Part shown: positions 30,080 through 39,932 of the stretch, in pieces
How positions within the stretch are numbered: the first letter of the stretch is position 1
How the letters are laid out: each line of letters starts with the position of its first letter
Sequence record: NZ_CP025192.1
Length of the DNA: 64,000 nucleotides
From: a plasmid
Direction: 5' to 3' (one strand)
Notes under the pieces: model-generated
Told to the model about the DNA's origin: nothing
The model's database searches: none
Seen by the model: only the letters and a program-made list of their open reading frames with translations
Made by a program: the position numbers and the translations under genes

Positions 30080-30190
30080 TGTTGATTTGCACTGAGAGCT
30101 GACCCGGGAAGGGTCAGAGTTTCCGCCGAGAAATGACCCGTGTCTGTTCACCATCCCGACCGGCTGGTCGGGATTATCGGAGTGATCGAC

Positions 30191-31714
30191 ATGGAGTTGT
30201 TGAGCGTGATCCGCCGGTGGCACTACCGGGATCGCCTCCCGATCCGCGAGATCGAGCGGCGGACGGGTCTGTCACGGAACACGATCCGCAAGTACCTGCG
30301 GTCGGACGCCGTGGAGGTGCGGTTCAAGGTTCCCGAGCGTCCGAGCCGCCTGGACCCGTTTGCCGACAAACTCTCGGAATGGCTGAGGGTGGAGGCGGGC
30401 AAGGGTCGCAAGGGGCGCCGGACGGTGCGGCGGATCCACGCGGACCTGGTGGCCCTGGGTTATGGCGGATCCTACGGCCGGGTCGCAGCCTTCGTCCGGC
30501 GCTGGCAGGCGAGACGGGAGGTGGCGCAGCGGACCACCGGGCGCGGGGTGTTCGTACCGCTCGCCTTTCAGCCCGGCGAGGCCTTCCAGTTCGACTGGAG
30601 CGAGGACTGGGCGACGGTGGGCGGCAAGCGGCTCAAGCTGCAGGCCGCCCATACCAAGCTGTCGCACAGCCGGGCCTTCGTGATCCGGGCCTACAAACTG
30701 CAAACCCACGAGATGCTGTTCGACGCTCTGGCCGAGGCATTCCGGGTGCTCGGCGGGGTGCCGCGTCGCGGCATCTTCGACAACATGCGCACGGCCGTGG
30801 ATCGCGTCGGCACGGGCAAGGTCCGGCAGGTCAACGCGCGGTTCCAGGCCATGGCCAGCCACTACCTGTTCGAGCCGACGTTCTGCAGTCCGGCCTCAGG
30901 GTGGGAGAAAGGTCAGGTCGAGAAAAACGTGCAGGACGCCCGGCGGCAGATCTGGCAGGTCATGCCGCCCTTCGCAGACCTGCCCGCCCTCAACGCGTGG
31001 CTGGAGGCCCGCTGCATCGAGCGCTGGGGCGAACTGTCCCACGGGGTGCTGCCGGGCAGCGTCGCCGAGGTCCACGCGCGGGAGAGGGCGAGCCTGATGC
31101 CGATGGGGCGGGCGTTCGACGGCTTCGTCGAGCACGCCAAGCGGGTGTCGCCGACCTGCCTCGTGCACTTCGAGAGCAACCGCTACAGCGTCCCCGCCTC
31201 GTTCGCCAACCGACCGGTGAGCCTGCGGGTCTATCCCGACCGCCTCGTCGTGGTGGCCGAGGGCCAGGTCGTGTGCGAGCACGCCCGGATCGTCGAGCGC
31301 TCGCACGACGTTCCCAGCCGCACCGTCTACGACTGGCGGCACTACCTGGCGGTGATCCAGCGCAAGCCGGGGGCGCTGCGCAACGGCGCACCCTTCGCCG
31401 AGCTGCCGGAGGCGTTCCGCAAGCTCCAGGCCCAGCTCCTCCGGCGGCCAGGAGGCGAGCGGGAGATGGTGGACATCCTCGCCCTGGTGCTGCAGCACGA
31501 CGAGGGGGCCGTGCTCTGCGCTGTGGAACTGGCCCTCGAGGATGGCGTCGCCACCAAGACCCACATCCTCAACATCCTGCACCGCCTGACCGACGGCACG
31601 AGCACGGCCGCGGCGATCGATGCACCCCAGGCCCTCGCCCTGAACCAGGAGCCGAGAGCCGACACCGGCCGCTACGACGCGCTGCGGACCCGCGAGGTGC
31701 GCCATGCGTCATGA
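30191..31714 (+). CDS. istA: IS21-family transposase IstA.
   Basis: N-terminal HTH ([33 protein letters not shown]) and DDE integrase core. Confidence 0.9.
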
Positions 31715-32483
31715 TCCCGCCAGTGCCGCCCTCGTGGTCATGCTGCGTGGGCTCAAGATGTTCGGTATGGCCCAGGCAGTCACCGAGCTGGTGGAGCAGG
31801 GCGCGCCGGCGTTCGAGGCGGCGGTTCCCATCCTCTCGCAGTTGCTCAAGGCCGAGATGGCCGAGCGCGAGGTGCGCTCGATCGCCTACCACACCAAGTC
31901 GGCCAGGTTTCCAGCCTACAAGGATCTGGCGGGCTTCGATTTCGCGGCGAGCGAGGTCAACGAGGCCACGGTGCGGCAGCTGCACCAGGGCGAGTTCACC
32001 GAGCAGGCGGACAACGTCGTACTGATCGGCGGGCCCGGCACCGGCAAGACCCACCTCGCCACGGCACTGGGTGTCCAGGCCATCGAGCACGGCCGCAAAA
32101 AGGTCCGGTTCTATTCCACGGTCGACCTGGTCAATGCACTGGAACAGGAAAAGACCGCGAACAAGGCCGGGCAACTCGCCGACCGCCTGCTCCGCCTCGA
32201 CCTCGTCATCCTCGACGAGCTCGGCTACCTGCCGTTCAGCGCCTCGGGCGGTGCGCTGCTGTTCCACCTGCTCAGCAAGCTCTACGAGCGCACCAGCGTC
32301 GTGATCACCACCAACCTGAGTTTCAGCGAGTGGGGTGGCGTGTTCGGCGACGCCAAGATGACGACGGCCTTGCTCGACCGGCTCACACACCACTGCCACA
32401 TCCTGGAAACCGGCAACGACAGTTTCCGGTTCAGGAGCAGTTCGGCCGAACCCAGGAACAGGAGAGCTAAAACACCCGCTTGA
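31704..32483 (+). CDS. istB: IS21-family helper ATPase IstB.
   Basis: Walker [19 protein letters not shown] and Walker [10 protein letters not shown]. Confidence 0.9.
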
Positions 32484-32671: not shown

Positions 32672-33436
32672 TCAGAAGAACAGCCGGACGCCGGTCAGGA
32701 AGGCCCAGCCGCCCACGTCCTCACCCTCGTTGCGGGCGTAGCGCGCGGTGTCGCCGAGCTTCCGCTCGTAGCTGACGCCAATGTAGGGCGACACCTCGCG
32801 GGTGACCTCGTAGCGCAGCCGCAGCCCGACCTCGACGTCGTTTAAGCCGCTGCCGATGTCGCGTTCGGGCACCTTCTGGAGCGCGAAGTTGGCCTCGACG
32901 TTGGGCTGGAGCACCAGCCGCTGCGTGATGTAGGCGTCGTAGGAGATCTCGGCGCGCGCCGAGAGGTCGCCCTTCTCGCTGACGAAGCCCTGGAGGTCGA
33001 CCTCGAACATGCCGGGCGCCAGCCCCTGCAGGCCGATGACGCCGTAGAAGCGGTCGGGGCGCGGGCGGATGTCGTAGCGGACACCGGCCTGGAAGTCCCA
33101 GTAGTAGCCGATCAGGCGCGAGTAGAGCAGTTGGACTTCGGCGTCCTCCACCCGGCCATTCCGCGCCGTCTCGCCTTCGGTCTTCAGCCAGACGCGGTTG
33201 ACGTCGCCGCCATACCAGGCCTGCCCGTCCCAACGGCCGATGTTCGGGCCGTCCAGTCCCCAGCCGTATTCGAGCTTCTCGAACAGTACCGCGCCGGTGA
33301 ACACTTCATGGCTGAACGGAGGCTCCGTGCTGTGCTGCATCGCCTGCGCATGCGCCGGTGCGACCTGGAGGATGCCCAAGGTCAGGGCGGCCAGGGAAGC
33401 GGCAGCAGTCAGGACGCTCTTGATCTTCATGACCAT
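32672..33436 (-). CDS. copB: Copper resistance outer-membrane protein CopB.
   Basis: Signal peptide MVMKIKSVLTAAASLAALTLG. The start ATG overlaps the copA stop by one nt (TGATG). C-terminal ...TGVRLFF ending resembles an outer-membrane beta-barrel signal. Confidence 0.8.
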   Translation of the reverse strand: MVMKIKSVLTAAASLAALTLGILQVAPAHAQAMQHSTEPPFSHEVFTGAVLFEKLEYGWGLDGPNIGRWDGQAWYGGDVNRVWLKTEGETARNGRVEDAEVQLLYSRLIGYYWDFQAGVRYDIRPRPDRFYGVIGLQGLAPGMFEVDLQGFVSEKGDLSARAEISYDAYITQRLVLQPNVEANFALQKVPERDIGSGLNDVEVGLRLRYEVTREVSPYIGVSYERKLGDTARYARNEGEDVGGWAFLTGVRLFF

Positions 33437-35367
33437 CACCGTGCCGAGGCCGTCTGGCGCGCCGGAACCACGGACACCTTGCGCATCATCCCGGTCTCCA
33501 TGTGGTAGAGCATGTGGCAGTGGAAGGCCCAGCCGCCGGGTGCGTCGGCCTCGATGTCCACGTCGACCGTCGAGCCGGGCTTGATGTTGACCGTGTGCAG
33601 CAAGGGGTTCTCGGCCCCGTTGCCGACCTGCGGCATCATCCACATGCCGTGCAGGTGCATCGGGTGGTTCATCATGGTCTCGTTGACGAAGCGGAAGCGC
33701 GCCCGCTCGCCGAGATGGAGTTGGATGGGCTGGGCCCGGCTGAAGTTGTTGCCGTTGATGGACCAGAAGTACCGCTCCATGTTGCCGGTCAGCCGGATCT
33801 CGATGACGCGGGTCGGCTCGCGCACGGGGTAGAGCGGCTTGGCGGCCCGCAGGTCGCGGTAGGACAGCACGCGGGCGCCCGGCGGGGCGCCGACGTCGTT
33901 CACCAGCGGGTCCGGCATCGCCATGCCGCCATGGTCCATTCCGGCCATTGCACCGGCGCCCGCCGCGCCATTGTTCATGTTGGGCATGCTGCCGTGGTCC
34001 ATGCCAGCCATGGAGCCCTGCTGCATGCCCTGCGGGCCTCCGGCGGGCATCTGCATTGCCGAGTGATCCATGCCAGCCATGCTTCCATGGTTCATGCCGC
34101 CCACGGACCCTTGCTGGGTGCCCATGGAGCCTCCAGCGGGCATCTGCATGGCGGAGTGGTCCATGCCGCCCATGTCCATCGGCGCGACATGGCCGGGCGC
34201 GTCCACCTCCGGCATCGGGGTTCCGCGGTCCAGCCCCTTGGGCCCGTAGTTCATGCCCATGTCGGCCATGGTCAGGACCGGGCGCGGGCGGTGCTGCGGC
34301 AGGGGCAGGGCGGGCAGGCCCTCCCGGGTGGCCAGGCTGAACTGCGCGAAACCCTGGCGCCCCATGGATTCCGCCAGCACCTGGTACTGGCGGCCGTCGC
34401 CCGGGCGGACCAGCACGTCGAAGGTCTCGGCCGGGGCGATGCGGAATTCATCGATAGTGACGGGGCGGACGTTGTTGCCGTGCGCCTGGACCACGGTCAT
34501 ATCGAGTCCGGGAATGCGCACGTCGAAATGCGTCATGGCGCCGCTGTTGATGAAGCGTAGGCGCACCGTCTCGCCCGGCCGGAACACGCCGGTGAAGTTC
34601 TGCGCCGGGGTGTGGCCGTTGACCAGGTAGGTATAGCCGCCGACATCCTCGATGTCGGTCGGGTCCATCCGCATGTCGCCCCACATGACGCGGTCGGAGA
34701 CGATGGCCGAGCGCGCGGCGGCGTCCGGCGCGCGGCGGAGCTCGCCGACCAGGCTGGCCAGGGTACGCTTGTTGTAGTTGTAGTAGCCGGGGTCGCGCTT
34801 GAGGTTGGCGATGACGTGGCTCGGCGTCTCGTCCGTCCAGTCCGACAACTGGACGATGTAGTCGCGGTCGTAGCCGAAAGGCTCCGGCGTCGCGGGGTCG
34901 ATGACGATGGAGCCGTAGATGCCGGACTGCTCCTGCACGCCCGAATGGCTGTGGTACCAATAGGTGCCAGCCTGCACGAGCGGGAAGCGGTACTGGTGCG
35001 TCCCGCCCGCGTCGATGCCCTGGAAGCCGTCGCTGATGCCCGGCACGCCATCCTGGCTGCTCGGCAGGATCAGGCCGTGCCAGTGGATCGAGGTGTGCTC
35101 GCGGAGTTGGTTGGTCACGTTGACCACCACTTCCTCGCCCTCGCGGAAGCGCAGGACAGGGCCGGGGATCTGCCCGTTGATGGCCATGGCCGGACGGCGG
35201 CGCCCGGTGATGTTGGCCGTCACGTGGGACAGGGTCAGGTTGAACTCGCGCGGCATCGCCCGCCCGACGGCGGGCTGCGCCAGGGCGTCGGGCGCGGCGG
35301 CGGGAAAGGCCAGGGCGGCGACCCCGAGCCCGAGGGCCTGCCGCCTGCTGAGCTTTTCATTGGTCAT
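33436..35367 (-). CDS. copA: Multicopper oxidase CopA.
   Basis: Tat signal (RRQALGLGVAALA), cupredoxin motifs (HWHG, HCH..H) and a Met/His-rich insert (MDMGGMDHSAMQMPAGG repeats). Confidence 0.95.
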   Translation of the reverse strand: MTNEKLSRRQALGLGVAALAFPAAAPDALAQPAVGRAMPREFNLTLSHVTANITGRRRPAMAINGQIPGPVLRFREGEEVVVNVTNQLREHTSIHWHGLILPSSQDGVPGISDGFQGIDAGGTHQYRFPLVQAGTYWYHSHSGVQEQSGIYGSIVIDPATPEPFGYDRDYIVQLSDWTDETPSHVIANLKRDPGYYNYNKRTLASLVGELRRAPDAAARSAIVSDRVMWGDMRMDPTDIEDVGGYTYLVNGHTPAQNFTGVFRPGETVRLRFINSGAMTHFDVRIPGLDMTVVQAHGNNVRPVTIDEFRIAPAETFDVLVRPGDGRQYQVLAESMGRQGFAQFSLATREGLPALPLPQHRPRPVLTMADMGMNYGPKGLDRGTPMPEVDAPGHVAPMDMGGMDHSAMQMPAGGSMGTQQGSVGGMNHGSMAGMDHSAMQMPAGGPQGMQQGSMAGMDHGSMPNMNNGAAGAGAMAGMDHGGMAMPDPLVNDVGAPPGARVLSYRDLRAAKPLYPVREPTRVIEIRLTGNMERYFWSINGNNFSRAQPIQLHLGERARFRFVNETMMNHPMHLHGMWMMPQVGNGAENPLLHTVNIKPGSTVDVDIEADAPGGWAFHCHMLYHMETGMMRKVSVVPARQTASAR

Positions 35368-35370
35368 CGT

Positions 35371-35523
35371 TCAATCCTTGGCCGCGACCGGCGCGGCATG
35401 GTCCTGCTCCTGAGCGCGTCCGCGGTCACCAAAGGCTTGGTGGGCCGAGGCCGCGGGCCGGGTCTGCGCCGCGACGGCGACAACGGCCATGGCGGCCGCC
35501 GCGATGGAGGTGACAAGGCGCAT
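35371..35523 (-). CDS. Small periplasmic protein, first gene of the cop operon.
   Basis: MRLVTSIAAAAMAVVAVAAQT signal-like N-terminus, about 50 aa, 4 bp upstream of copA. Weak GGGGAAG SD. Confidence 0.25.
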   Translation of the reverse strand: MRLVTSIAAAAMAVVAVAAQTRPAASAHQAFGDRGRAQEQDHAAPVAAKD

Positions 35524-35700
35524 CCGTGAGCTTCCCCGGTGGACACAGCGTGGGCGGGTCAACGGCTCGCCCGCCGAAGTCGATGGGGCCAGGATGTCCA
35601 CCAACTACGAGCCGGAGATTGCCCAAGTGTGACAAGATATTTCAGCCATCCGCCATCCGCTGTGCGCCGAGAGGCTGGCGGCACCCTAGCCGATTGACCA

Positions 35701-35719
35701 TATCCCTACCAGGGGGATA
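35701..35719. promoter_or_regulatory. CsoR/RcnR-family operator (TATCCCTACCAGGGGGATA) between the divergent cop operon and the fused MFS/spermidine-synthase gene. It lies directly after a TTGACC -35-like hexamer.
   Basis: The GC-tract pseudo-palindrome TATCCC-N7-GGGATA is read directly. A near-identical copy is at 37361-37379. It closely resembles the B. subtilis CsoR site TACCCTACGGGGGTA. Confidence 0.55.
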
Positions 35720-35805
35720 GGACAAATGCATGCATCTCGCTCCTCCCCTCCGTTTCCCGCAGCGTTTCGTGCCTGGCCATCACCGGCGGAGCGGGGAGTT
35801 CCTGG

Positions 35806-37317
35806 ATGCCGCGTCAGGAACGCGTCCGCCGCCTTGCCAAGCAGGTCTGGCCCATGCGTGACGGCAGAGACCGCTCCGCCGTCGGCTTCGCCGCCTTCGC
35901 CTCGGGCTGGAGCGTGATGTCGCTGGAGATGCTGGACGGACGCCTGATGGCGCCGGTCTTCGGCCAGACGATTCACCAGTGGGGCGCCATCATCGGCACC
36001 GCGCTGGCCTTCATGTCACTCGGCTACTGGGCCGGAGGACGCTTGGGCGGGCGGGCGAACGCCGCCAGGCTGCTGCCGCTGCTGCTGGCAATCGCCGCCT
36101 GCGCGGCGGCCCTGACGCCTTGGATCGGTCGCCCGCTGGCCAGTGCCCTCGAAAACCTGCTCGGCCCTTTGGCGGGAGCCGTCGCTACCTCGGCGGTGCT
36201 GATCGGCCCGCCCGCCTTCACCCTGGCCGCCGTCTCGCCACTCTGCGTGGCGCGGCTGGCGGCCTCCGGCTCTCCCGCCAAGGCCTCGGGCAGCATTTCA
36301 GCGCTGGCCGCGCTGGGGAGCATTGGCGGTACCTTCTTCGCCGCGTTCTATGCCATCCCCTATATGGGTCTGACGGCAGGCTACGCCTCCGCCTCCTTGC
36401 TGTCCGCCGCCGCCGCTTTGGCTACCGGCCTGGCCCCATTGCGCGCGGCACTGGTGATGGCACCGCTCGCTCTCGGCATCTGGGCCGAGCGGGCCCAGGC
36501 CAGTCGCTTCACCGAGTATTTCGAGACGATCTACAACACAGTGATGGTCTGGGACGCCCCGGAGGCGACCTACCTGCTGTTGAACTCGCCGCTCGCCGTG
36601 CAGTCGGCCCGGCGCAAAGACGGCCGCTTGACCGGCTCGTACTGGGAAATGATGGCGGCGGTGCCGTCCCTGACCCAGGGTCGGGACTCGCTGTTCCTGG
36701 GCGTAGCCGGAGGCTCGGCGGTGGATGCCATGACGAAGGCATGGGCGGACGTGCGGAGCACCGGCGTGGAGATCGACCCCGGCGTCACCGACGTCGCCCG
36801 GCGCCACTTCGGCCTGACCATTCCAGTGACGCATGACGACGCGCGCCGCTTCGTCGAAACGAGCCAGACGCAGTTCGACATCATCGTGGTCGACCTCTAC
36901 GCCACCGGCCAGATCCCCTCCCACGTCGCCACGGTGGAGTTCTTCCAGGCAGTGTCGCGGCGGCTCCGCTCCGGCGGCGTGGTGGCAGTGAACGTCTTCG
37001 GGGCCGGAGACCCTCGCAGCATCGTGGCACCCATGGCGGCGACGATGATGGCGGCTTTCCCAAGCGTGCTGGCGACCCAGACGGGCAGCGGCAACACTAT
37101 CCTGCTGGCTTGGCAAGAGCCTGTCGCGGTCGAGCAGGCGAGGGAGATGCTGGACGCCACGCCAGCCAGCGCGGCCTCGGCATCAACGAGAATGCAGGCC
37201 ACGCTGCGGGAAGCCAGCCTGGTGGCCAATGGCGCGGTCCCGCTGACCGACGAGTTGTCGGACATGGACACTCGGGCTGCCCGCGCCGTGGCCGCCCAAC
37301 GCCGTGCGCCGCGCTGA
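35806..37317 (+). CDS. Fused MFS-like membrane domain / spermidine-synthase-like (aminopropyltransferase fold) protein.
   Basis: Approximately 250 aa of Ala/Leu-rich TM segments. The C-terminal PABS-like region has GVAGGSAVDAM (AdoMet-binding-like) and IIVVDLYATGQIPSHVATVEFF. Confidence 0.65.
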   Translation: MPRQERVRRLAKQVWPMRDGRDRSAVGFAAFASGWSVMSLEMLDGRLMAPVFGQTIHQWGAIIGTALAFMSLGYWAGGRLGGRANAARLLPLLLAIAACAAALTPWIGRPLASALENLLGPLAGAVATSAVLIGPPAFTLAAVSPLCVARLAASGSPAKASGSISALAALGSIGGTFFAAFYAIPYMGLTAGYASASLLSAAAALATGLAPLRAALVMAPLALGIWAERAQASRFTEYFETIYNTVMVWDAPEATYLLLNSPLAVQSARRKDGRLTGSYWEMMAAVPSLTQGRDSLFLGVAGGSAVDAMTKAWADVRSTGVEIDPGVTDVARRHFGLTIPVTHDDARRFVETSQTQFDIIVVDLYATGQIPSHVATVEFFQAVSRRLRSGGVVAVNVFGAGDPRSIVAPMAATMMAAFPSVLATQTGSGNTILLAWQEPVAVEQAREMLDATPASAASASTRMQATLREASLVANGAVPLTDELSDMDTRAARAVAAQRRAPR

Positions 37318-37360
37318 CAAGACGGAATGGCCGCCGTTCCTAGGCCGACCGGCTTGACGG

Positions 37361-37379
37361 TATCCCTACCGGGGGGATA
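37361..37379. promoter_or_regulatory. Second CsoR/RcnR-family operator (TATCCCTACCGGGGGGATA), directly after TTGACGG and about 10 bp upstream of csoR/rcnR.
   Basis: Differs from the copy at 35701 by one base (A/G in the centre). Same -35 juxtaposition. Confidence 0.55.
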
Positions 37380-37389
37380 GCTCAGGAGA

Positions 37390-37668
37390 ATGACAGCCCC
37401 CCATGTCCATGCATCGCATCCGGAGATCGTGAAGCGCCTGAAGCGCGCCGACGGCCATCTCCGCAGCGTGGTCGAGATGATCGAGCAGGGCCGCCCCTGC
37501 CTCGACATCGTGCAGCAACTCCATGCGGTCGAGGCGGCCATCGCCAACGCCAAGCGGACCCTGATCCACGACCACCTCGACCACTGCCTCGACGATGTCG
37601 TGGGCGCGGTGCCGCGCGCCGACCGCGGCCCGATCGACGAGTTCAAGGCCATCACGAAGTATCTCTGA
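37390..37668 (+). CDS. CsoR/RcnR/FrmR-family metal-sensing transcriptional repressor.
   Basis: 92 aa. DUF156 signature (HxxxxxKRLKRxxGHLRSVxxMIEQGRPCLDIVQQLHAVEAAI). Candidate metal ligands are C37, H62 and C66, plus N-terminal His5, His7 and His10. Confidence 0.85.
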   Translation: MTAPHVHASHPEIVKRLKRADGHLRSVVEMIEQGRPCLDIVQQLHAVEAAIANAKRTLIHDHLDHCLDDVVGAVPRADRGPIDEFKAITKYL

Positions 37669-37678
37669 AGGCGCCTCG

Positions 37679-38857
37679 ATGACTCCTTTCTCCGAACTGC
37701 TGGCCCAAGGATCAGCCCACGCCTGGCTTTTCGTTCCCAGCGCCATCCTGCTGGGAGCCCTGCACGGCCTGGAGCCAGGCCATTCGAAGACCATGATGGC
37801 GGCCTTCATCGTCGCCGTTCGCGGCACCGTCACGCAGGCGGTTCTGCTCGGAGTAGCGGCGACCTTCTCGCACACGCTGGTGGTCTGGGGCATCGGACTC
37901 GGGGGCCTGTACCTTTGGAAGGGCTTCGACGCCGAGACCGCGGAGCCGTACTTCCAGCTTGCCTCCGCCGTGGCGATCATCGCCATGGCCATCTGGATGC
38001 TGTGGCGGACCTGGCGGGACCAGCAGGCCAGCAGTGCCCACGGACACTCGCATGACCATGGGCACCACCATGGCCATGAGCACAGCCATAGTGAGGGGCA
38101 TGGCCACAGCCACAGCCACGGCGAGGAGGTGCGGCGCATCGACACCGGCCATGGCGTCGTCGCCCTGGAGGTGTTCGAGGACGGCGTTCCGCCGCGCTGG
38201 CGGCTGCGGTCGGAGCGTGGTCCGCACTGGGCGGCCGAGGATGTGACGGTGGAGACCCTTCGTCCGGACGGGCAGCGCCAGAGCTTCGGCTTCGTCGACC
38301 GCGGCGGCTACCTCGAGTCCACGACCGATATTCCAGAGCCTCACGAGTTCACCGCCCGCCTGAGCCTGTCCCACGGCAACCATGCCCACGACTACGAGGT
38401 GGTCTTCGCGGAGCAGGGCGACGGTCACGAGCAGGAGCCTCTGGCTCCCGGTGCCTTCGCGACCACGGACGGCTACCAGGATGCTCATGAGCGCGCCCAT
38501 GCCAACGACATCCAGCGCCGGTTCGCCGGACGCGAGGTGACGACCTGGCAGATCGTGCTGTTCGGGCTGACGGGCGGGCTGGTGCCGTGCCCGGCCGCGA
38601 TCACGGTGCTGCTGATCTGCCTCCAGCTTCAGGAGTTCACCCTCGGCGCGGCGCTGGTGCTGTGCTTCAGCATCGGCCTCGCCATCACCCTGGTGACCGT
38701 CGGCGTCATCGCCGCGACCGGCATGCGCCACGCGTCCCGCCGCTGGTCGGGCTTCGACACCTTCATGCGCCGGGCGCCTTATGCCTCGGGCGCGCTCATC
38801 ATCCTGGTGGGCTTCTATGTCGGTGCCGTCGCGCTGACGCAGATCGCGGCGGCCTGA
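37679..38857 (+). CDS. rcnA: NicO/RcnA-family Ni/Co efflux permease.
   Basis: LHGLEPGHSK motif and a His-rich cytoplasmic loop (HGHSHDHGHHHGHEHSHSEGHGHSHSHGEE). Real start at the internal Met of ORF 37595-38857. Confidence 0.85.
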   Translation: MTPFSELLAQGSAHAWLFVPSAILLGALHGLEPGHSKTMMAAFIVAVRGTVTQAVLLGVAATFSHTLVVWGIGLGGLYLWKGFDAETAEPYFQLASAVAIIAMAIWMLWRTWRDQQASSAHGHSHDHGHHHGHEHSHSEGHGHSHSHGEEVRRIDTGHGVVALEVFEDGVPPRWRLRSERGPHWAAEDVTVETLRPDGQRQSFGFVDRGGYLESTTDIPEPHEFTARLSLSHGNHAHDYEVVFAEQGDGHEQEPLAPGAFATTDGYQDAHERAHANDIQRRFAGREVTTWQIVLFGLTGGLVPCPAAITVLLICLQLQEFTLGAALVLCFSIGLAITLVTVGVIAATGMRHASRRWSGFDTFMRRAPYASGALIILVGFYVGAVALTQIAAA

Positions 38858-39083
38858 TGCGGGCGTGTTCCGGCTGCGTGGGCGAAAGCTCAGGCCGGAA
38901 CGCGCAGCCCCGGACCTTACCCCTGCTATGGCATGCGCAGCCCGGAAAACTCAGGGACGGCCATCGGGTCGGCCACTCTTGCTTGACAGACCAGCACGCC
39001 ATTCACCATCCTGGGCGCAAGGGGACATCCGCGATCGCCCCGTGAGGCTTCGGCCGAAGCATCGCGTCCGACACTCCACAACC

Positions 39084-39932
39084 ATGGAGGGGACGCCCAT
39101 GCCTGCACCTGACACCATCACCACCACACAGCTCGCTCGGCTCGTCGGCCTGCCCGATGCACCGGTGCTGCTCGACGTACGGACCGAGGAGGACTACGCG
39201 GCCGACCCGCGCCTGCTCCCGGCTTCCTTCCGGCGCGAACATCGCGACGTGACCACCTGGATGGCGGGCCACGCCGGTCGGCACGTGGTGGTCGTCTGCC
39301 AGCGCGGCCTCAAGCTCAGCCACGGTGTCGCCGCCTGGCTGCGTCACGGCGGTGCCAGGGCCGAGGTGCTCGAGGGCGGCTTCGAGGCATGGGCTGCCGA
39401 AGGCCACCTGCTGGTGCATCCGAACCGCCTGCCGACACGCGATGCGCAGGGGCGCACGGTGTGGGTGACCCGTTCCCGGCCCAAGGTGGACCGGATTGCC
39501 TGCCCCTGGCTGATCCGGCGCTTCGTGGATCCGTCCGCCGTCTTCCTCTTCGTCGCGCCGTCCGAGGTCGGCGCGGTGGCCGAACGCTTCGGGGCCGCGC
39601 CCTTTGACGTCGAGGGGGTGTTCTGGAGCCATCGTAGCGAGACCTGCACCTTCGACACCATGGTCCAGGAGTTCGGATTGACCTCTGAGCCGCTGCTCCG
39701 GCTGGCGGAGATCGTCCGCGGCGCCGACACCGCCCGGCCCGACCTCGCGCCGCAGGCGGCGGGGCTGCTCGCGGCGTCCCTGGGCCTGTCCCGCATGCAC
39801 CGGGATGACCTGGCGCAACTCGACGCCGCAATGGGTCTGTACGATGCCTTCTACCGCTGGAGCCGCGATGCCGTCGCCGAGACCCACAACTGGCCAGCGT
39901 CGCCGAGCGCAGCTGGGAGGTCTGGCCAGTGA
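39084..39932 (+). CDS. chrB: Chromate resistance regulator ChrB with an N-terminal rhodanese-like domain.
   Basis: ChrB signature VWVTRSRPKVDRIACPWLIRRFVDPSAVFLFV. N-terminal rhodanese-like fold (VLLDVRTEEDY...VVVCQRGLKLSHG). The stop overlaps the chrA start. Confidence 0.8.
   Translation: MEGTPMPAPDTITTTQLARLVGLPDAPVLLDVRTEEDYAADPRLLPASFRREHRDVTTWMAGHAGRHVVVVCQRGLKLSHGVAAWLRHGGARAEVLEGGFEAWAAEGHLLVHPNRLPTRDAQGRTVWVTRSRPKVDRIACPWLIRRFVDPSAVFLFVAPSEVGAVAERFGAAPFDVEGVFWSHRSETCTFDTMVQEFGLTSEPLLRLAEIVRGADTARPDLAPQAAGLLAASLGLSRMHRDDLAQLDAAMGLYDAFYRWSRDAVAETHNWPASPSAAGRSGQ

Follow-up and report, generated by a model that had tools for sequence, protein, structure and literature searches.

Two copies of a 19-bp dyad on the plasmid analysed here probably serve one NreA-type repressor, as operators within two promoter cassettes of the same orientation which would drive the efflux genes nreA-rcnA and a fused MFS/spermidine-synthase-like (MFS/PABS) gene, with the neighbouring copper genes (cop) left outside the regulon. 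The window, i.e. the whole stretch of DNA that was analysed, comprises 64,000 nucleotides of a Roseomonas mucosa plasmid (record NZ_CP025192.1), and its gene calls were backed by Pfam and NCBIfam profile matches (Table 1). The locus is set within a copper resistance island and the region around it is rich in IS elements.

Table 1. Genes, promoter elements and operators of the locus (positions within the window)
Feature	Position	Strand	Basis
CopB gene	32672-33643	-	Pfam/NCBIfam
Multicopper oxidase CopA gene	33436-35367	-	Pfam/NCBIfam
Small orfX	35371-35523	-	gene call
Conserved cop upstream block TGAAATATCTTGTCACACTTGGGCAATCTCCGGCTCG, apparently outside the NreA system	35608-35644	-	alignment with paralogous cop locus
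P1 -35 hexamer TTGACC	35694-35699	+	read from sequence
Site 1, predicted NreA-type operator TATCCCTACCAGGGGGATA (TCC-N9-GGA core, CA centre)	35701-35719	+	PWM 32.5 bits
P1 putative -10 TAGGAC, 18-bp spacer	35718-35723	+	assigned by position, as published TAGNAT
43-codon ORF, TGA overlapping ATG 35854 (ATGCGTGA)	35730-35861	+	read from sequence; translation predicted
Fused MFS/spermidine-synthase-like gene, 487 aa (503 aa from ATG 35806)	35854-37317	+	Pfam/NCBIfam
P2 -35 hexamer TTGACG	37354-37359	+	read from sequence
Site 2, predicted NreA-type autoregulatory operator TATCCCTACCGGGGGGATA	37361-37379	+	PWM 28.4 bits
P2 putative -10 TAGCTC, then 6 nt, then nreA ATG	37378-37383	+	assigned by geometry, as in PMC12724321
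nreA, 92-aa CsoR/RcnR-family (PF02583) repressor, NreA clade	37390-37668	+	Pfam
rcnA/mrdH-like His-rich NicO/RcnA Ni/Co efflux permease	37679-38857	+	PF03824; NF007454, 438 bits vs cutoff 195

The window contains exactly two copies of the dyad, TATCCCTACC(A/G)GGGGGATA, both on the plus strand, with A as the centre base at site 1 and G at site 2. These are the only matches to the pattern TATCCCTACCRGGGGGATA when up to three mismatches are allowed on both strands of the whole window. Shuffled sequences gave an expectation of 0.03 matches, and at least two matches were reached in none of 100 shuffles. A complete 183.7-kb sister plasmid also contains the dyad only twice. A preliminary description of this DNA had reported the layout in much the same terms, and most of it could be confirmed: two near-identical dyads are present, each with a TTGAC(C/G) hexamer one base ahead; one copy lies between the divergently oriented orfX and MFS/PABS genes (gap of 283-331 bp), the other ends 10 bp before the ATG of the repressor gene, and rcnA, the His-rich permease gene, starts 11 bp 3' of the latter. 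The features it located are real, only its start coordinate (35695) is off by one.

This arrangement has a counterpart in Mesorhizobium, where NreA acts as a Ni-responsive repressor of the CsoR/RcnR family and Ni relieves the repression (PMC12724321). Its operator TATCCTCTCGGGGGGGATA, of the form TATCC-N9-GGATA, is located between the -35 (TTG) and -10 (TAGNAT) elements of a leaderless promoter, with the A of the nreA ATG as transcription start in 5'-RACE; mutation of the TTG abolished expression, the operator core TCC-N9-GGA is essential, and mutagenesis demonstrated NreA-dependent repression through the element (PMC12724321). On the R. mucosa plasmid, both sites carry the TCC-N9-GGA dyad in the spacer after the -35 TTG, and both putative -10 elements keep the TAG, without the final T of the published TAGNAT. 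The spacing from the -10 over 6 nt to an ATG is identical at sites 1 and 2. Scanning of positions 35300-37800 returned no sigma-70 consensus promoter, no terminator-like site and no Rfam element. In view of the empty consensus scan, the promoters are assigned by homology to the one mapped in Mesorhizobium. Site 1 fits the published consensus TATCCYCtccrgGRGGATA and scores higher than site 2 by PWM; a CA operator centre, as present in site 1, caused 3-fold tighter repression in the Mesorhizobium orthologue (PMC12724321).

The 92-aa repressor matches PF02583 (Trns_repr_metal) with 77.3 bits against a cutoff of 22.8 and is 74% identical to NreA of Mesorhizobium sp. C089B and 60% identical to both A. 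xylosoxidans NreA and P. putida MreA. Besides His5/His7, it carries Cys37, His62 and Cys66. C37, H62, H65 and C66 align gap-free with the Mesorhizobium metal-pocket residues C38, H63, H66 and C67, and alanine substitution of C38, H63 and C67 (plus H66) resulted in super-repression (PMC12724321). In the same ungapped alignment, R16, R19, Q43 and K90 correspond to the DNA-surface residues R17, R20, Q44 and K91. Among 80 repressor orthologues, C37, H62 and C66 are kept in all and H65 in 79, and the N-terminal His pair is missing in a single one (L064). The best relative with a solved structure is the Ni sensor InrS (phmmer E = 7e-12); the PHVH motif of the repressor aligns on InrS His21, and Pro36 precedes Cys37 as in InrS, a position at which Geobacillus CsoR has Tyr. 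In CsoR, the Tyr ahead of the ligand Cys belongs to a Tyr35-His61-Glu81 allosteric network. The locus further departs from CsoR in its operator anchors (TCC/GGA and not TAC-N9-GTA) and in the neighbouring Ni/Co permease gene. From RcnR and DmeR it departs in the Z position, which is Cys66 and not the His of H-C-H-H, and in the operator sequence. The published DmeR box was also considered as the identity of the dyad and rejected, as both its sequence and the HCHH fingerprint differ. The 92-aa protein is a member of the NreA clade, InrS-like (H-C-H-C), and most likely not a copper CsoR. The earlier label 'CsoR-type' should be made more precise accordingly, as the relatives combine the repressor with Ni/Co transporters and the orthologue responds to Ni.

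For conservation of the operator, we compared 80 loci from Acetobacteraceae, Rhizobiales and others, with repressors 65-99% identical. A seed match (at least 15 of 19 positions, no more than 150 bp ahead of the repressor gene) was found in 57 of the 80 loci, and by PWM the motif is present in about 70. With both strands counted, there are 66 seed matches in these upstream segments; elsewhere in 890 kb there are only seven. TTGnnn stands directly ahead of the dyad in 48 of 59 distinct orthologous upstream regions, and the nreA ATG follows the -10 after 6 nt in six of the nine Acetobacteraceae orthologues shown (4-5 nt in the others). The cassette is also found ahead of mreA-mrdH on P. putida pWW0 and of a repressor-nreB pair on S. 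meliloti pSymA, where the upstream 22-mer is the same as that of site 1. The gene 3' of the repressor encodes RcnA in about 33 of the 80 loci, and ten sampled loci without RcnA have an MFS permease there in eight cases. Additional operator copies in the relatives front CDF, RcnA and HupE/UreJ genes, all of which are Ni/Co transporter families. Because the motif recurs upstream of the repressor gene in 57-70 of the 80 loci, and because of the NreA precedent, site 2 is assigned as the operator through which nreA-rcnA is autoregulated, which represents known biology. The same conservation, together with the published genetics on the 74%-identical orthologue, very strongly backs the link between the repressor and rcnA proposed earlier. 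The earlier proposal that both dyads serve the adjacent CsoR/RcnR-family repressor as operators, in promoter spacers behind a -35 hexamer, is likewise supported.

A closer look at site 1 revealed that its similarity to the nreA region is confined to about 45 bp, covering promoter, operator and ATG. It appears to be a full-strength copy of the nreA promoter/operator cassette, start codon included. The ATG, in the canonical position for a leaderless start, opens a 43-codon ORF which, with a GC3 of only about 0.63, does not have a strong coding signature. The MFS/PABS protein downstream consists of an N-terminal membrane domain and a C-terminal PABS-like domain (NF037959, 179.6 bits vs cutoff 40; PF01564, 24.5 vs 22.9). 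Since its scores for true aminopropyltransferase equivalogs are far under the cutoffs (60 vs 304), a spermidine-synthase-like enzymatic activity is only putative. RefSeq places the start of the gene at 35854 in strain HV2 and at 35806 in HV3; the N-termini of homologues and the DNA homology to a chromosomal orthologue both begin at 35854. Two other explanations of the upstream region were discarded: a former nreA copy, since deleted, of which site 1 would be what is left (flank alignments to nreA coding and upstream sequence were not above shuffled controls) and a riboswitch or structured leader (no Rfam match; fold z-score of 0.95, not significant).

The preliminary description had also included the MFS/PABS gene in the regulon. 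NreA control of this gene through site 1 is plausible, because site 1 outscores site 2 and its promoter geometry is identical, but the relatives do not show such a pairing: the gene was not found within 6 kb of the orthologous nreA in any of the 80 loci. As the pairing is absent from the relatives of either gene, it would represent a lineage-specific expansion of the regulon. The MFS/PABS protein has no known metal function, and its closest homologues are located in non-metal chromosomal contexts without the operator. A general link of the family to metals was considered and dismissed, with close homologues adjoining ETF, sugar-kinase, ornithine-decarboxylase and ABC-transporter genes; distant plasmid copies sit among conjugation, defence or sulfur genes.

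The cop operon had been tied into the same regulon, with site 1 acting bidirectionally so that the repressor would co-regulate orfX-copA-copB, MFS/PABS and nreA-rcnA. Site 1 does lie in the intergenic region common to cop and MFS/PABS, and with a nearly symmetric dyad the orientation is not decisive. We nevertheless regard this joint Cu/Ni control as very unlikely. Site 1 begins 178 bp upstream of orfX (counted from the ATG), with its -35 and -10 directed away from cop. When aligned with the cop paralogue on plasmid p3 of R. mucosa GlSt084, the sequence upstream of cop is conserved up to about 35644-35650, which leaves 56 bp to site 1; the paralogue lacks an NreA site, and its divergent neighbour is arsR. 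A response regulator and a histidine kinase (copRS) directly follow copB in HV2, HV3 and GlSt084 p3, plasmid TT14 has lost copA to an ISL3 insertion but retained site 1, and the operator adjoins copAB in none of the 80 orthologous loci. Furthermore, the effect reported in P. putida is weak and the protein dispensable for Cu induction. The cop genes look separately controlled, outside the NreA regulon, and the conserved block (Table 1) is a candidate for a promoter element or regulator box belonging to cop itself. A regulon centred on copper, with the repressor primarily a Cu(I)-sensing CsoR, could draw on the x-C-H-C ligand set common to CsoR, on the tightest in vitro binding of Cu by the P. 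putida homologue and on the location within a copper resistance island. It is unlikely in view of the co-transcribed Ni/Co permease gene (NF007454) and of the partners and extra targets in relatives, which are RcnA, NreB-like MFS, CDF and HupE/UreJ proteins. The Pro before Cys in place of the Tyr of the CsoR network and the N-terminal His residues aligning with the Ni ligand of InrS argue in the same direction, as does the in vivo response of the orthologue to Ni (PMC12724321). Tight binding of Cu in vitro is also reported for InrS, which nevertheless senses Ni in cells (PMC4235346).

Site 1 might also be a by-product, that is, a duplicated or recombined nreA promoter in front of a captured cargo gene, which may bind the repressor but has no adaptive role in metal tolerance. 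This view, which we consider rather unlikely, is favoured by the MFS/PABS homologues (64-85% identity, as well as the distant plasmid copies), none of which has the operator motif nearby or lies among metal genes, by the 0 of 80 nreA loci with the gene, by its frameshift in the sister plasmid TT14, and by the many IS elements of the region. On the other hand, the cassette is intact and scores above site 2, it comprises the -35, the -10 position and an ATG at the canonical offset, and the ORF ends exactly on the conserved MFS/PABS start. With expressed NreA, an intact operator and promoter would cause Ni-dependent transcription, adaptive or not. Site 1 could thus be regulatory in form and physiologically unimportant, because the MFS/PABS gene has no known metal role, its homologues lack the operator and the TT14 copy is frameshifted. 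The dyad as a binding site for a MerR-type activator, within a spacer of excess length, or as a REP-like mobile repeat unrelated to the repressor, would agree with its position in a promoter spacer and with the IS-rich plasmid, but is extremely improbable. The spacer has 18 bp and not the 19-20 bp of MerR-type promoters, and no MerR-family gene is annotated by RefSeq near the locus on three sister plasmids. A tblastn search of the whole window with CueR/MerR queries gave only a weak match (E = 0.015) inside an IS21 transposase, in agreement with the earlier statement that a MerR gene is lacking nearby. The preliminary description had named a repeated mobile sequence as the finding that would speak against a regulatory motif; the dyad has two copies in 183.7 kb, it tracks the repressor gene in 57-70 of 80 genomes, and published mutagenesis demonstrates that NreA represses through this element.

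For the preferred reading, an NreA-type repressor with two cassettes, we propose that the apo-tetramer of the 92-aa protein binds the TATCC-N9-GGATA dyad. As the dyad fills the spacer between the TTGAC -35 and the TAG-type -10, the bound repressor would occlude RNA polymerase, and binding of Ni(II), probably also of Co(II), would lead to its release. P2 would then drive a leaderless nreA-rcnA transcript, resulting in autoregulated Ni/Co efflux. P1 would give rise to a leaderless transcript opening with the 43-codon ORF, whose stop overlaps the MFS/PABS start; these transcripts may read on into nreA-rcnA, because no terminator is predicted between the MFS/PABS gene and P2. Motif statistics and the conservation of motif and residues come from the present analysis, whereas work by others on the 74%-identical orthologue established that it represses, that Ni induces, that the start is leaderless and that the TCC/GGA bases are essential. 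From these we infer binding at site 1, Ni control of MFS/PABS, coupling through the upstream ORF and read-through. More tentative, although possible, is the complete scenario in which the NreA cassette was copied before MFS/PABS together with its leaderless ATG and the gene is switched by Ni/Co through a translationally coupled 43-codon uORF.

Since autoregulated NreA operators ahead of Ni/Co efflux operons are already established, the outcome for this part is chiefly a better annotation: the 'metal-sensing transcriptional repressor' on plasmids of R. mucosa skin isolates can now be called NreA, with its operator and promoter marked. Excluding cop prevents a wrong annotation of Cu/Ni co-regulation. 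The second cassette is a modest new point, which offers a testable handle on the widespread, uncharacterised 'fused MFS/spermidine synthase' family and an example of how a compact 40-bp leaderless promoter/operator module is redeployed. If true, the cassette before MFS/PABS would point to a so far unrecognised response of the envelope to nickel/cobalt stress, of a polyamine or aminopropyl-transfer type, and provide a natural example of regulon growth through promoter-cassette duplication.

Among known systems, MreA-MrdH of P. putida KT2440/pWW0 was reportedly described by Haritha in 2009. The repressor and the permease are both 60% identical to the proteins of the R. mucosa plasmid (MrdH over its full length, with the same inserted domain), the upstream cassette on pWW0 is near-identical (TTGACCATATCCCCCCCAGGGGGATAGGAT), and both loci are plasmid- or island-borne with flanking mobile elements. 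In contrast to the nreA cassette of R. mucosa, the pWW0 operator is located about 37 bp before the ATG, so that the transcript is not leaderless, and pWW0 contains neither an MFS/PABS gene nor a second operator. P. putida MreA, renamed 'CsoR' (PMC11978298), is reported to bind Cu tighter than Ni or Zn in vitro, and induction of the system by Cd, Ni, Zn and Co was reported; the in vitro order is at odds with the Ni/Co partner genes. This preference for Cu counts against a settled Ni specificity of the NreA clade.

Synechocystis InrS (PDB 5fmn) shares the H-C-H-C ligands, the aligned N-terminal His and RPC instead of YC before the Cys, and has a dyad operator overlapping the -10 in the promoter of a Ni-efflux gene. 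It is, however, much more distant in sequence, is encoded apart from its target and controls the MFS gene nrsD from an internal promoter. Type-2 operators of CsoR (S. lividans ATATACCCCTNAGGGGTATAT, PMC3902906) are similar in their AT-rich inverted ends, their C- and G-tracts and a length of about 19-21 bp; they also overlap core promoter elements, and metal binding releases the protein. Their anchors, in contrast, are TAC-N9-GTA and not the TCC-N9-GGA of the R. mucosa plasmid, and CsoR senses Cu(I) and controls copZA. The type-1 boxes of DmeR/RcnR, TACT-G6-N-AGTA and ATAGGGTACCCCCCTATGCTATG, differ from both the CsoR and the NreA dyads.

The closest agreement is with nreAXY of Mesorhizobium sp. 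C089B (Jensen & Griffitts 2025, PMC12724321), as the R. mucosa repressor retains all metal-site and DNA-contact residues defined there by mutation, and both systems have the 19-bp TATCC-N9-GGATA placed between a -35 TTG and a -10 TAG, a start codon 6-7 nt after the -10, as in the leaderless arrangement, and a co-transcribed Ni efflux gene. On the R. mucosa plasmid, the -35/-10 spacer is one base longer and the -10 ends without the terminal T. Efflux in C089B involves the CDF protein NreX plus NreY, whereas the permease of the R. mucosa plasmid is of the RcnA/MrdH type. Finally, a genome-wide search in C089B returned good operators only ahead of nreA and nreA2, whereas the R. mucosa plasmid carries a second full-strength cassette before a non-transporter gene.

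The 19-mer TATCCCTACC(A/G)GGGGGATA occurs exactly twice in the 64-kb window, compared to 0.03 matches expected by chance in shuffled sequence, and no third copy was found elsewhere in the window with up to three mismatches allowed. Each copy follows a TTGAC(C/G) hexamer, as stated in the preliminary description, with one base in between, and its observation that no MerR-family gene is present was confirmed as well. A wider motif search returned only site 1 (before the fused MFS/spermidine-synthase gene, MFS/PABS) and site 2 (before nreA-rcnA) above 10 bits in a complete 183.7-kb sister plasmid. The locus, for which gene calls were confirmed by Pfam and NCBIfam, is 100 % identical between the window and three human-skin Roseomonas mucosa plasmids. 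Further along, the GC content falls from about 0.69 to 0.51-0.60, which suggests a separately acquired segment.

Features of the locus and its surroundings (window coordinates)
Feature	Position	Strand	Remark
IS21 element (istA/istB)	30140-32483	+	directly downstream of copB
CopB and multicopper oxidase CopA		-	Pfam/NCBIfam; small orfX ahead of both
orfX, 50 aa	35371-35523	-	ATG at 35523
Conserved block TGAAATATCTTGTCACACTTGGGCAATCTCCGGCTCG	35608-35644	-	5' of orfX-copA
TTGACC	35694-35699		before site 1
Site 1	35701-35719	+	dyad
43-codon ORF	ATG 35730; TGA 35859-35861		TGA overlaps ATG 35854
MFS/PABS	end at 37317		Pfam/NCBIfam
TTGACG	37354-37359		before site 2
Site 2	37361-37379	+	dyad
nreA, PF02583 repressor, 92 aa	37390-37668		Pfam/NCBIfam
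rcnA, His-rich NicO/RcnA permease	37679-38857		Pfam/NCBIfam
chrB, chrA			downstream of rcnA
Long ORF call	38865-39932		probably over-extends chrB
chrB-a RNA motif (RF03078)	39016-39101	+	RefSeq chrB start at 39099
GC-poorer segment	48000-54000		possibly acquired separately

Both dyads, initially described as CsoR-type, are real NreA-type operators. We sampled 80 loci with repressors of 65-99 % identity from one-genome-per-species contigs of Acetobacteraceae, Rhizobiaceae, Bosea, Ancylobacter, Azospirillum and others. In the 90 bp 5' of the repressor genes we observed TATCCyyyCCaGGGGGATAGG, in most cases stopping a few bases short of the start codon. In 57 of the 80 loci, the 150 bp upstream hold a sequence that agrees with the window dyad at 15/19 positions or more, and only 7 such matches were found in 890 kb outside these upstream windows. 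Using a PWM built from these sites, about 70 loci gave a match at the upstream position. Of 59 distinct upstream regions, 48 have a TTGnnn hexamer immediately 5' of the dyad. Short BLAST searches against plasmids located the site 1 cassette element upstream of mreA-mrdH on P. putida pWW0, and a 22-mer identical to that of site 1 upstream of a repressor-nreB-like pair on S. meliloti pSymA.

RcnA is encoded 3' of the repressor in about 33 of the 80 loci, and an MFS permease in 8 of 10 sampled loci without RcnA. The few additional dyad copies within these 80 loci lie before genes of the CDF, RcnA and HupE/UreJ types and, in one case, before a YchJ-like gene. Two operators of about 33 bits in Rhizobium daejeonense (L032, 1923-1943 and 7657-7677, both minus strand) sit before genes for a secreted 167-aa protein and a YchJ/SEC-C-motif protein, and one in a Rhodoferax MAG (L026, 3321-3341, plus strand) before a HupE/UreJ gene; an NreA regulon is thus not always limited to the repressor's own operon. 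On plasmid HV2 (L096, 18746-18766, minus strand), a weak half-site-like match (9.3 bits, ...GGAGGATAGA) about 107 bp 5' of a cation-diffusion-facilitator gene in a czc-type cluster is probably due to chance.

With 32.5 bits against 28.4, site 1 outscores site 2, and it has a CA centre, which confers 3-fold tighter repression in the Mesorhizobium orthologue (Jensen & Griffitts 2025, PMC12724321). Its flanks (tagcCgaTTGACCa...GGATAGGaca) are closer than those of site 2 to the nreA promoters of related Acetobacteraceae. At both sites, exactly 6 nt lie between the putative -10 (TAGGAC and TAGCTC, respectively) and an ATG, which is the nreA start at site 2 and ATG 35730 at site 1; this spacing is 6 nt in six of the nine Acetobacteraceae orthologues shown and 4-5 nt in the others. 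Based on this spacing and the overlap of its stop with ATG 35854 (ATGCGTGA), we infer that the 43-codon ORF is a leaderless uORF whose translation is coupled to that of MFS/PABS. ATG 35854 is likely the true MFS/PABS start; homologues start about 10 residues ahead of the conserved GFAAFA motif, this ATG is the annotated start in one RefSeq record, and it is also where nucleotide homology to a chromosomal orthologue of 85 % identity sets in. The MFS/PABS leader holds no Rfam element. As no terminator-like site was found between MFS/PABS and the site 2 promoter, read-through of the site 1 transcript into nreA-rcnA is possible.

The operator-MFS/PABS pairing is lineage-specific. No MFS/PABS homologue lies within 6 kb in any of the 80 nreA loci, none of the nine loci holding six MFS/PABS homologues (64-85 % identity) has an NreA motif or metal-related neighbours, and distant plasmid copies lack metal linkage as well. 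The second cassette before MFS/PABS would be a plausible lineage-specific regulon expansion. In plasmid TT14 the MFS/PABS gene is split by a frameshift. Alignment of the site 1 flanks yielded no evidence for a decayed nreA gene.

The preliminary description had joined the cop operon, MFS/PABS and repressor-rcnA in one metal regulon. This stands for repressor-rcnA, whose NreA operator is kept in relatives, and is plausible for MFS/PABS; the tie to cop is unsupported. Site 1 starts 178 bp 5' of the orfX start codon, and the site 1 promoter is directed away from cop. GlSt084 p3, a fourth R. mucosa plasmid, carries a paralogous cop cluster (79 % identity) with arsR as divergent neighbour and no NreA motif at this locus. 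Between the paralogues, block TGAAATATCTTGTCACACTTGGGCAATCTCCGGCTCG, the ribosome-binding site and the start are sharply conserved, and conservation is gone past about 35650. On HV2, HV3 and p3, response regulator and histidine kinase genes lie immediately 3' of copB, and in TT14 (L091, CP099475.1, plasmid pTT14-4, 18127-22017) copA is cut short by an ISL3 insertion while site 1 is kept. Because of this distance and direction, the paralogue, the sister-plasmid regulators and TT14, we place cop outside the regulon, most likely under independent control. The one line of support for a cop link is indirect: in P. putida, three cop genes rose about 1.3-fold when MreA was deleted, and 5-20 μM of the protein shifted a copA-I promoter fragment; Cu induction did not require MreA.

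The 37-bp block is almost invariant despite diverged surroundings and is a candidate binding site or promoter for the cop-linked two-component regulator. The IS21 element occupies a place that in sister plasmids holds the response regulator/histidine kinase pair together with DUF411, a P-type ATPase and copCD; the window variant has lost the cop-linked regulators from there. The similarity of OrfX to a 192-aa protein of the plastocyanin/azurin family (L094, 6115-6693), whose gene precedes copA in the GlSt084 p3 cluster, is confined to the N-terminal signal-peptide region, and orfX looks like a truncated remnant of that gene. TT14 retains both NreA sites and intact nreA and rcnA.

After its His-rich loop, the permease has an insertion of about 115 residues (about 150-265) that forms a soluble domain; the same domain stands alone 3' of the repressor in L026 and L040, two comparison loci (tblastn; RcnA residues 136-264 only). 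Downstream, a chrB-a motif (64.8 bits, gathering score 43.9) is located between the rcnA stop and the RefSeq chrB start, a position suggesting that the long ORF call is probably too long for chrB. A leader element of its own thus seems to precede chrBA.

With regard to known systems, the window repressor shares 74 % identity over 89 ungapped residues with Mesorhizobium NreA, a 93-aa member of the 'NreA clade' of the CsoR/RcnR family, which represses nreAXY until relieved by Ni (PMC12724321). Its operator TATCCTCTCGGGGGGGATA (consensus TATCCYCtccrgGRGGATA) occupies the spacer between -35 TTG and -10 TAGNAT, repression requires TCC-N9-GGA, and the A of the nreA ATG is the transcript start by 5'-RACE (PMC12724321). 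C38A, H63A and C67A are super-repressors, and R17, R20, Q44 and K91 are required for repression (PMC12724321); the window repressor keeps all seven residues. Its identity to both A. xylosoxidans NreA and P. putida MreA is 60 %. Among solved relatives the Ni sensor InrS is the best match, with the PHVH motif of the window repressor aligned on InrS His21, and like InrS the repressor has Pro before the ligand Cys, whereas the CsoR network has Tyr there. Its Z position is Cys and it therefore lacks the RcnR/DmeR fingerprint HCHH; the boxes published for RcnR/DmeR are also unlike the window dyad. The permease is 60 % identical to MrdH over its full length. Because of these likenesses to Mesorhizobium NreA, InrS and MrdH, site 2 and nreA-rcnA belong to a characterised system, and the autoregulated nreA-rcnA unit is known biology.
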